Source of the DNA: Naegleria gruberi
Taxonomy: Eukaryota
Strand: one strand, 5' to 3'
Assembly: GCA_000004985.1 (NCBI GenBank)
Contig: GG739235.1
DNA length: 3,081 bases
Part shown: positions 1 through 3,081 of the stretch, piece by piece
Position numbering within the stretch: position 1 is the first letter of the stretch
Layout: the number at the start of each line of letters is the position of its first letter
Notes under the pieces: generated by a model
Seen by the model: the letters and a program-made list of their open reading frames with translations, nothing else
Database searches by the model: none
Told to the model about the DNA's origin: nothing
Position numbers and translations under genes: made by a program

Positions 1-1500
1 ACATGATATATAATGATATAGAATTCAATTTCATGTCTTAATAATCAGAAATGGTATCATGGGAAGGTAAATGTTGATATTTTATGGTTGACTTTAAGGA
101 AAGACAAGTCACACCAACTCTATCAAATACATCACTTCAACCAACAATATATACATGAAAATGCTTCACTCTACGAGTAGAGATAGAAAATCAAGTTTAT
201 TTTCACTTTCATGTTCATGATTTCAACTCTATCATACCAATTAGTCAACTGTGGACATGGATGAAAATCTGGAAAATGATCACTCTATGCAACTTTACCA
301 TCATGTTATACATCTCAAACAACGTATGTGGATCAATTTTCAGACATTCTGTTGAACATTCCATCTTTCAGTAAGGTAAAGGGTGAAATATCAAGGTTGA
401 CTTTGAAGATCAGGAGGAAATCTTGAATATAGAGAACCAAATCCTCAATCAACAAAATACATATCAATCGATTGGAAATCAATAGTACATCTCGAAAATA
501 TAATTTATTTTATGTTTTGAAATCTCTTCTTGACCTCTTTTAGTCAATTAAGACAATTAAGGATGACACTATAGGAAAAGTTACCAATCTCAAAATAAAT
601 GATAATATCGAGTTCCACATCTCAAATAAAGTGGACTTTCATCAAATTATATAATTTCATTTCAAGAAATACATCCGTTAGATAGTACATGGTGATATTT
701 CAAGGGAATGGCTGGAAATCTGAAGGATATAGAAACAACTCCATTTTCACTGAAATTGATACCATGATATGTAGACACTCTAATTAGCATATAATATCAA
801 TTTCATGAGTATTGGCTCAGTAGATATTGAGTTGTCAACTCTATCATTTTACTATAGAACTTTGACATAAAATCAAAGATTATGCTCCAACTCACTTATT
901 TTATATGCAATTAGTCTAGAACTGATAACACACATTCTGTACACCATGTATATACATCTATACAAGTTTAAAAACAATTCATGATACTTTAATTCAGTCA
1001 ATCAGTAAATGTTCAATGTCAATAGTGATTATATCCAAGTGTACACTCTATCTCAGCGAAAGTACATTCAACCATCATGTAACTTTACCAGATACATTTA
1101 GTCACACTATTATACAACTGGAATCAATTTTAATGTTTTAGAATTGAATTCAATATGATAATAATAACAATCTGTCAAATTGTCATATTTCAACATATAG
1201 AATATACTCCATCTCATTTATTTTTCAAAATATCATACAAGTATCAAATATGAATACACTCTCCTAGATGAGGAGAACAATCTGAGAAAGTTTCACATTC
1301 ATGGCTCAGTATCTTAAATTCCACTAACTTACCTTAGAAGAAAGTTTACGTTCCATATCAGTCATTTCATAGAGTTATTGATCAATTCCAACACCAGTAT
1401 GTTATTCATCCGTTCTAGTACAATTTATGTTTCAAGAGTGATTTCTGTGATAAAGTTGATGGAAGTGAGTGCCAAATGGCACTTTCACTTCCAATATAGT
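1..1500. repeat. Degenerate tandem or satellite-like repeat array, period about 300-320 bp with internal sub-repeats, roughly 5 units; no ORFs.
   Basis: Recurring anchor words at roughly 300-bp spacing. 'aaggtaaa..ggttgacttt' occurs at 65-98 and 374-407, about 30 of 40 positions identical, and a third copy 'ggtgatatttcaagg..ggaaatct' lies at 690-720. 'ttagtcaa' occurs at 241, 541 and about 910. 'acatctcaaa' occurs at 311 and 617. 'caactctatca' occurs at 116, 225 and 834. 'caatttcatg'-like words occur at 25, 333, 651, 798 and 975. 'aactttacca' occurs at 291 and 1081. 'tggctcagta' occurs at 813 and 1302. Copies are only about 60-75% identical and carry indels. Neither strand has an ORF on the track. 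Confidence 0.5.
1461..1492. other. Imperfect hairpin: ggaagtga-gtgcc / ggcac-tt-tcacttcc, 13 paired bases with a 2-nt bulge and a 4-nt loop.
   Basis: Seen directly: ggaagtgagtgccaaatggcactttcacttcc. It sits at the boundary between the repeat array and the unique sequence downstream. Confidence 0.3.
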
Positions 1501-1568
1501 AGTAAGCTTTGTTAATCCTTTCGATTCTGAGCCATTTTCACATCAACTTGAATCTATTTTTAACTTTT

Positions 1569-1619
1569 CCGCGCGTTTGGCGGTTTGATCAAGCGACAAA
1601 AATACTTTTGATCAAGTGA
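1569..1619. promoter_or_regulatory. GC-rich island (ccgcgcgtttggcgg) followed by two copies of the 8-bp palindrome TTGATCAA inside a 13-bp direct repeat TTTGATCAAG[C/T]GA, 23 bp apart. Candidate protein-binding site.
   Basis: Seen directly: ccgcgcgtttggcgg at 1569-1583, and tttgatcaag at 1584-1593 and again at 1607-1616. The GC-rich motif stands out against roughly 75% AT flanks. TTTGGCGG resembles an E2F-type site (TTTSGCGC). Function unknown. It lies about 150-200 bp 3' of the minus-strand ORF stop. Confidence 0.2.
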
Positions 1620-1763
1620 TTTTATTACCACTAGCCACCATCATAACTTGATATATATAAATATTTAACAATTTCACATCAGCCGTATATTGTGCCCCAT
1701 TACAATCACCATCTTTTGACATCATTTGTGATATATATTGTTAATGTATTTAAGGAGAAAAGC

Positions 1764-2054
1764 TTAATAAATAGGGGTTGACATGGGATCCAAACCCAAC
1801 CTATCGTAACATGAGCAATTATTTGGAGAAAAACAATTTCCATTTCCTGAGCAAATATTAGAATTGGTTGAATTTAAATTAAAACATGTTGGAAATTCAC
1901 ATTTCATTCCAACATAACCTGGAAGGCATTGACAGATATCGAATTGTATACATTTTCCGTTTCCATTGGAACAAACAGCAGATTCATTCGACAGGATATC
2001 GAAACATTTTGTAAATTGGCAAAATTGACCACCATTAGTTGCTACATGGACCAT
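1764..2054 (-). CDS. EGF-like cysteine-rich repeat protein, single exon or fragment (possibly a pseudogene); predicted extracellular.
   Basis: The 96-aa ORF has 17 Cys. Repeat 1 (CSNGNGKC-IQFDI-CQC-LPGYVGMKC-E) matches tenascin/integrin-type EGF spacing C-x-C-x2-G-Y-x-G-x2-C. Repeat 2 (CSGNGNC-FSPNN-CSC-YDRLG) is cut off by the stop before its last Cys. N-x-S/T sequons are present (NES, NST). Codon third positions are A/T-rich like the flanking genome. There is no N-terminal signal peptide, and an in-frame stop lies 2 codons upstream of the Met, so it is probably an exon or fragment rather than a complete gene. Confidence 0.5.
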   Translation of the reverse strand: MVHVATNGGQFCQFTKCFDILSNESAVCSNGNGKCIQFDICQCLPGYVGMKCEFPTCFNLNSTNSNICSGNGNCFSPNNCSCYDRLGLDPMSTPIY

Positions 2055-2376: not shown

Positions 2377-3000
2377 AGATTTTTCTTTGGTATTAAGCAG
2401 GCCAACCTTAGAAATGCTATCATTGAAACTCAGCGATCCAAGAAAATTATTAATAAGTTGGGCCAATTAGACAATGACTATAATTGGCATAATAGCACTC
2501 TCTCCTTCTGGAGAAACTCTCTCTTGTCTTATTATCAGCAAAGACTCCTCTACTTTAATCTCCACCACTCAATTTTACTAGGTAACGACAGTATTTGTGA
2601 CAAATGTAATGTCAAGGAAGATTGGACCCACGTATTCCAAACTTGTCCCAAATGCAATCCTGAAAAGGATGAACTGTATGCCACATGGGACGCTATCTCC
2701 CAGAAATTTAGCCTTAACAAGATTCGTTTCCCTCCTGATATCTCAGAATCCTCTCAACTTAGGATAGAATTTGATGGTCGTTGCTCCCGTAATGACTGGC
2801 TTAACTGGTCTAAGCGCAAAAGAATACCTAAGAATGTGGCCCTAGAAGTCTACAAAGCACTAGCTATTTATTTGGAAAATTGCTACAAGAACTCAGTGTG
2901 GTACAACCGTCCCAATGCAGGCTTCACTATTAACAGGAAATACCTCTCTGCCTACCACAGGCAGGCTCAGTCTAACCAACCACTTAGCGTCAACCCATAA
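2377..3000 (+). CDS. C-terminal portion of a non-LTR (LINE) retrotransposon ORF2 (pol). It is 5'-truncated. The ORF track reports 2458..3000 from an alternative TTG start.
   Basis: The frame is open from the TAG at 2374-2376 to the TAA at 2998-3000 with no upstream ATG. Position 2458 is TTG, so the 'M' is an ORF-caller artefact. The protein contains ...RLLYFNLHHSILLGNDSICDKCNVKEDWTHVFQTCPKC... . This matches the conserved C-terminal block of jockey/CR1/I-like ORF2s (R-L-R-x-G-H-x-x-L-x-H-x-x-L ... C-x2-C-x3-E-D-x-x-H-x4-C-P), that is, the CX1-3CX7-8HX4C zinc-knuckle. GC content is higher than the host-like ORF and the flanks. Confidence 0.7.
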   Translation, partial: RFFFGIKQANLRNAIIETQRSKKIINKLGQLDNDYNWHNSTLSFWRNSLLSYYQQRLLYFNLHHSILLGNDSICDKCNVKEDWTHVFQTCPKCNPEKDELYATWDAISQKFSLNKIRFPPDISESSQLRIEFDGRCSRNDWLNWSKRKRIPKNVALEVYKALAIYLENCYKNSVWYNRPNAGFTINRKYLSAYHRQAQSNQPLSVNP

Positions 3001-3039
3001 CACTTAAACGCTGAACCGAAACTTACTGGTTGTAGACCT

Positions 3040-3070
3040 CGTCTCTCAGGTCTTTACGATACAAGAGACG
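3040..3070 (+). other. 3' UTR stem-loop of the LINE fragment: 7-bp stem CGTCTCT/AGAGACG with a 17-nt loop, immediately followed by the A-rich run taaaaaatcaa.
   Basis: The inverted repeat cgtctct (3040-3046) and agagacg (3064-3070) is seen directly. Stringent-type LINEs carry a 3'-terminal hairpin recognised by their own RT, upstream of a short A-rich or microsatellite tail. Confidence 0.4.
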
Positions 3071-3081
3071 TAAAAAATCAA

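Follow-up and report, generated by a model that had tools for sequence, protein, structure and literature searches.

The locus described here most closely resembles low-copy degenerate tandem duplications, the minisatellite- or macrosatellite-like relics in which a few head-to-tail, non-coding units of a few hundred base pairs decay without being homogenized. Classical satellite DNA is likewise tandem and AT-rich, lies in ORF-free surroundings and has units usually of 150-350 bp, but its arrays run to hundreds or thousands of units with identities above 85-90%. The 5' UTRs of LINE-1 elements carry tandem promoter monomers, such as the A and Tf types of mouse, which are also units of a few hundred base pairs oriented as the ORFs that follow them. 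Short satellite-like arrays, in which a few monomers lead into a non-coding tail, also occur in other genomes within Helentron-, Helitron- or MITE-like elements; such arrays have been described, for example, from non-autonomous Helentrons of oyster (PMC7492417).

We analyzed a 3,081-nt stretch of Naegleria gruberi contig GG739235.1 (assembly GCA_000004985.1), hereafter the window, which is about 30% G+C and carries at its left end part of an array of tandem units of about 309 bp. Nothing essential separates this array from the low-copy relics; its oddities are uneven conservation relative to a related metagenome contig, VFQN01031297.1 (L002), and flanking pieces that are rearranged there. Across the window and L002 the array consists of three clear units and two eroded or marginal ones, about 1.5 kb in all, of which the window holds the right-hand ~850 bp: the tail of unit Z, the full units A and B, and the degenerate unit C. 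The features of the window are listed below, with strand where one applies.

Window 1-63: 3' tail of repeat unit Z, severed by the window's left edge and recognized by a match to a unit HMM.
Window 64-372: repeat unit A, 309 bp, delimited by self-blastn and pairwise alignment.
Window 373-681: repeat unit B, 309 bp, delimited by the same alignments as unit A.
Window 682-850: degenerate partial unit C, clearly in phase only over its first ~85 bp and at a 13-mer at 835-847.
Window 741-815: AT-rich inverted repeat (hairpin) inside unit C, with a fold z of -2.8 in the window.
Window 851-1766: ORF-free flank outside the array, not demonstrably repetitive, which the sequence-only reading had counted as repeat as far as 1500.
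Window 1460-1493: GC-rich hairpin of 14-16 bp, with a z of -5 to -6 in the window and a counterpart at L002 446-484.
Window 2057-1767, minus strand: 97-codon EGF-like ORF with two EGF-like cysteine patterns (EGF_2, E 1e-5, above the Pfam threshold).
Window 2401-3081, plus strand: 5'-truncated copy of a non-LTR-type retroelement, consisting of the tail that follows the reverse transcriptase (RT) and running past the window's right edge.

The sequence-only reading had proposed that a diverged tandem repeat of roughly 310 bp, with internal sub-repeats, fills positions 1-1500. The period is real, and both self-blastn and in-phase words support it, but the repeat occupies only about 1-765/850, roughly half of that block. 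Self-blastn aligned 64-466 to 373-764 with 58.6% identity over 413 columns (E 5e-13), an alignment that extends into unit C at 682-764. At offsets of 305-311, 40 stretches of 20 nt had at least 15 matches, compared with a maximum of 18 in 200 dinucleotide shuffles. Window 1-960 contained 15 in-phase exact 8-mers where 0.35 were expected, about 40 times the shuffles, and six in-phase 10-mers where 0.04 were expected. There were no in-phase words at all in 961-1500 and no match to the unit HMM in 961-1800; the stretch from about 850 to 1500 is ordinary AT-rich non-coding flank, not repeat.

Most of the anchor words from which the repeat had been deduced are present about one base from where they had been placed, and some were not confirmed. 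Among those found were AAGGTAAA at 64 and 373, GGTTGACTTT at 86 and 395, TTAGTCAA at 241 and 540, ACATCTCAAA at 310 and 617, and GGTGA[AT]AT[AT]TCAAGG at 382 and 691. Because the sequence is so AT-rich, single words of 8-10 nt repeat by chance, and the non-chance part is the collinear spacing of the anchor words, 307-309 bp, which is far beyond chance. A supposed third copy of ttagtcaa at 910 proved to be merely the 6-mer TTAGTC at 911, and the recurrence of AACTTTACCA at 291 and 1081, offset by 790 and out of phase, is what chance predicts for a 10-mer. Nor does the array have the 110-180-bp sub-period from which a higher-order structure had been suspected: CAACTCTATCA recurs in phase, at 224 and 836 (2 x 306), and the sole pair 110 bp apart, a borderline one at 1157 and 1267, lies outside the array. 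Tandem Repeats Finder, which had been suggested as a check, left the array undetected and at a minimum score of 30 returned just two trivial 10-bp repeats, because the copies are only 60-70% alike. The suggestion that the repeat is old holds up well, given unit identities of 60-72%.

These identities are accompanied by small indels, and the units are spaced 307-310 bp apart. Units A and B share 60% identity across 301 columns (z = 25 relative to shuffles), with pairwise A-B identities of 60-68%, and the complete unit Z, at L002 1455-1763, is 71-72% identical to unit A. An HMM built from Z, A and B matched window 9-59 to unit positions 252-304 (E 2.5e-4), a match that is not fully independent, as the Z of L002 was among the training units. 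With the same HMM, the further unit Y was marginal (E 0.015), and only 685-709 of unit C was matched (E 0.33). Y is 62% identical to B (z 4-5). Taken whole, C is not significant (z below 1); the word TCAACTCTATCAT occurs at 223 and again within C at 835, an offset of 612.

L002, which is 2627 bp long with 31% G+C, was the only contig among 241 million metagenome records to match a pattern taken from the start of the unit. The GTDB genomes and IMG/VR, in neither of which Naegleria DNA is expected, gave no match when scanned with DNA patterns. Window 1-926 corresponds to L002 1701-2627, where the contig stops; the two are 92% identical, and a single indel separates them over these 927 bp. Within L002, 1543-2025 aligns to 1853-2333 at an offset of 310 (65.7% identity, E 2e-45), and 1205-1455 aligns to 2136-2385 at an offset of 931, or three units (61.6% identity). 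The array thus carries on leftwards beyond the window's edge. Upstream of L002 1146 there was no unit. Since the units differ from each other by 30-40% and the window differs from L002 by about 8%, the duplications long pre-date the split of window and L002. Outside the region shared with the window, L002 has at 585-660 a compound microsatellite, (ATGATGATATG)n / (GATGATGA)n, with a purine-rich run after it, a feature that the window lacks.

Conservation between the window and L002 is strikingly uneven. Unit A is 87% identical to its L002 counterpart and unit B 96%, with differences at 6/250 positions in its core, 401-650. More generally, divergence is about 12% in 1-400 and 651-750, where identities are 78-94% and 86-88% respectively, and 2-3% in 401-650 and 751-926, where they are 96-100%; the heterogeneity of this mosaic is strong by a post-hoc estimate. 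Such a pattern is not what neutral decay alone would leave at an orthologous locus; to explain it, either diverged copies must have exchanged sequence, by recombination or gene conversion, or parts of B and C must be under constraint.

The flank is also arranged differently in the two contexts. Window 1263-1315 recurs at L002 1-53 (94% identity), about 1.1 kb upstream of the array there, and window 1453-1505, which contains the GC-rich hairpin, recurs at L002 443-493 (77%), again upstream of the array. Both pieces are downstream of the array in the window, and their position on its opposite side in L002 means that the segment is present in more than one arrangement, which suggests a dispersed or larger repeat rather than a single-locus relic as the better fit. 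The ends of L002 correspond to window 926 and 1263 and so flank a 336-bp segment, 927-1262, which hints that this segment is repeated in the genome from which L002 came, or that the arrangement there is tandem or circular with a length of about 2.96 kb. Together these observations suggest that array and tail exist in more than one copy, as a dispersed non-autonomous element, a ~3-kb repeat or a rearranged paralogue. Elsewhere in the flank, window 1569-1601 is a small GC-rich, partly palindromic island (ccgcgcgtttggcggtttgatcaagcgac) amid AT-rich DNA, about 170-200 nt downstream of where the minus-strand EGF-like ORF stops.

The plus-strand ORF at 2377-2997 matches two N. gruberi 'predicted proteins', P0001 with 99% identity and P0002 with 60%, which marks the window as N. 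gruberi or a very close relative. The similarity begins abruptly at about 2401-2404, with the N-terminal 70-80 residues of both proteins absent from the window. A full HMMER scan added two more distant relatives, P0007 and P0008, in which an RVT_1 domain (E 1e-37 to 1e-39) precedes the homologous region. Based on these comparisons, 2401-2997 encodes the Cys/His-containing C-terminal domain (CDKC...H...CPKC) that comes after the RT in a non-LTR-type retroelement; this copy lacks its 5' two-thirds, including the RT and everything upstream of it. This copy was recently inserted, and the P0001 family, which is annotated in N. gruberi as ordinary genes, looks to have been recently active. The retroelement lies about 340 bp upstream of the EGF-like ORF, which had no close relative among 5.8 billion proteins and may be an unannotated exon or a pseudogene.

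The array itself encodes no protein, and its units have no RNA fold in common. We consider it somewhat better than an even chance that the array is the neutral fossil of a local tandem duplication that affected non-coding DNA in an N. gruberi-like nuclear genome. Under this explanation a unit of about 309 bp would have undergone a few rounds of head-to-tail copying, for which unequal crossing-over or replication slippage is the simplest mechanism, and the copies would since have drifted, with small indels, to their present 60-72% identity. The array would be neutral, in the sense of having no sequence-specific function. The ORF-poor stretch in which it lies has also received the 5'-truncated non-LTR retroelement. 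In the literature, no account of a Naegleria repeat close to 310 bp came to light, and no paper mentions the accession VFQN01.

An alternative that we hold only tentatively, and judge unlikely on balance, is that the units are the internal tandem region of a dispersed sequence of about 2-3 kb, either a non-coding (non-autonomous) mobile element or a low-copy repeat. Besides the array, this sequence would include a tail reaching as far as about 1315 or the hairpin at 1460-1493. Helitron 3' ends have a hairpin shortly before the terminus, and the similarity between window and L002 stops about 12 nt after the strong GC-rich hairpin. This hairpin is retained in L002 although its 3' arm differs, and the L002 copy reaches -28 kcal/mol on the minus strand, where it is stabler because of G-U pairs. 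The two tail pieces found upstream of the array in L002 (94% and 77% identity) are consistent with such an element, as are the ends of that contig, which bracket one 336-bp segment in the way that assemblers would be expected to end contigs around repeats. The resemblance to such element-borne arrays, for example in oyster (PMC7492417), lies in the few monomers that lead into a non-coding tail, which in the window has a strong hairpin and pieces that also occur in a second context. Terminal inverted repeats, a target-site duplication, a poly-A tail and a CTRR end were sought and not found, and L002 offered no convincing 5'/subterminal complementarity or asymmetric terminal repeats. Furthermore, the similarity at the hairpin spans just 53 bp, and two contexts are known, the second from one contig out of 241 million metagenome records.

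It is also conceivable, at a distinctly lower level of probability, that parts of the array are functional non-coding DNA (a regulatory array, a lncRNA or a small-RNA locus) maintained by selection in B and C. The segments 401-650 and 751-926 would then owe their 96-100% identity to L002 to constraint that their neighbors, at 78-94%, lack, but recombination between diverged haplotypes or paralogues explains the mosaic equally well. The long hairpin at 741-815 has a nearly perfect counterpart in L002 (2442-2516; -26.5 kcal/mol, z -6.35), but the window copy is weakened by two mismatches that are uncompensated. A palindrome at 485-618 folded no better than its shuffles (z -0.5 to -1.2). RNAalifold returned no consensus pairs for seven units, and there was no Rfam match: searches for tRNAs with ARAGORN and against Rfam at E values up to 1 gave noise-level matches only. 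We give comparably little weight to a broader proposal, that array and tail together make up a conserved repeated module, non-coding and about 2-3 kb long, either a mobile non-autonomous element or a larger tandem or circular repeat with a period of about 2.96 kb, in which 401-650, 751-926 and the two hairpins would be functional. If that were so, the near-invariant stretches might be, for example, a non-coding RNA or the target of a replication or transposition protein.

That the window catches the edge of a true centromeric or subtelomeric satellite, its bulk lying outside the window or collapsed in assemblies, seems very unlikely to us. The array is a head-to-tail series of defined monomers with a period of 307-310 bp, set in ORF-free, retroelement-invaded DNA, and it runs off the window's left edge, all of which such a satellite would explain. 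In L002, however, it stops after about two more units, with Y already marginal, and in the window there is no unit downstream of about 960, so that it has a visible end and comprises 3-5 units, three clear and two marginal even with L002 included. Monomer similarity is low (60-72%), with no sign of homogenization, and the unit-start pattern occurred in only one metagenome contig of the 241 million records. The satellite interpretation raised by the sequence-only reading is therefore left unsupported.

Its further suggestion, that the units are tandem 5'-UTR monomers of the LINE family represented at 2401-3081, is highly improbable. In its favor, the array shares the plus orientation of the retroelement and has a mildly A-rich plus strand, and a related and recently active family is present in N. 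gruberi (P0001, 99% identity). The retroelement copy, though, is truncated, starting at about 2401 within the domain that follows the RT, and some 1.4 kb, including the antisense EGF-like ORF, separates it from the array, so that the interpretation fails. Unlike the monomers of mouse LINE-1, the units do not adjoin ORF1 or ORF2, and they are far more diverged from one another, being just 60-72% alike. No ORF1 or RT remnants or other retroelement domains were found in 961-2400, and a partial copy of the same family (L001) has no array.

We regard as equally implausible that the array is what remains of a gene whose product contained a repeated domain of about 103 residues. In length the unit comes near to a multiple of three (309 = 3 x 103), and the EGF-domain ORF is close by on the opposite strand, but the spacing varies among 307, 308 and 309 bp. 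The block had been reported as ORF-free, which was borne out, the longest open frame in 1-1766 being 71 codons; this is only the chance level (shuffle mean 72-77), and stop density is the same as in random sequence. When 1-1766 was scanned against Pfam in six frames, no domain was detected, with a single sub-threshold match to a DUF, and the 20 open frames of 1-1138, concatenated, had no match among 5.8 billion proteins. Mismatches between units showed no codon-phase bias, and the 71 substitutions between window and L002 fell 26/25/20 over the three codon phases, with no third-position bias in either comparison. Splice-site-like words sit at the unit boundaries; an exon-intron repeat was considered and rejected, as the splice-like AAG|GTAAA and TTAG|TCAA are lost in L002 (GGCAAAT; CTGATAAACT). 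A ciliate genetic code was also rejected (the organism is Naegleria, and table 6 open frames were equally unremarkable), as was CpG depletion as a sign of methylation (GpC is depleted equally). Finally, a tandemly amplified SINE- or MITE-like unit, as the sequence-only reading had also envisaged, finds no support, with no tRNA or A/B-box signal, no poly-A tail and no convincing terminal inverted repeats, the only candidate (9-30 / 1142-1163; 19/22 nt, blast E 0.21) being placed within a repeat unit.

We return to the fossil local tandem duplication as the explanation we prefer. The array looks like ordinary genomic debris and not part of the neighboring retroelement. At most, the sparse record of Naegleria repeats gains from it one further tandem repeat, low in copy number and degenerate. 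The array also marks an ORF-poor, retroelement-invaded spot within an otherwise gene-dense genome. To our knowledge, the non-coding RNAs, centromeres and non-autonomous transposons of Naegleria are essentially undescribed. The finding would carry greater weight if the unit were the internal array of a mobile element, or if its near-invariant segments were transcribed.
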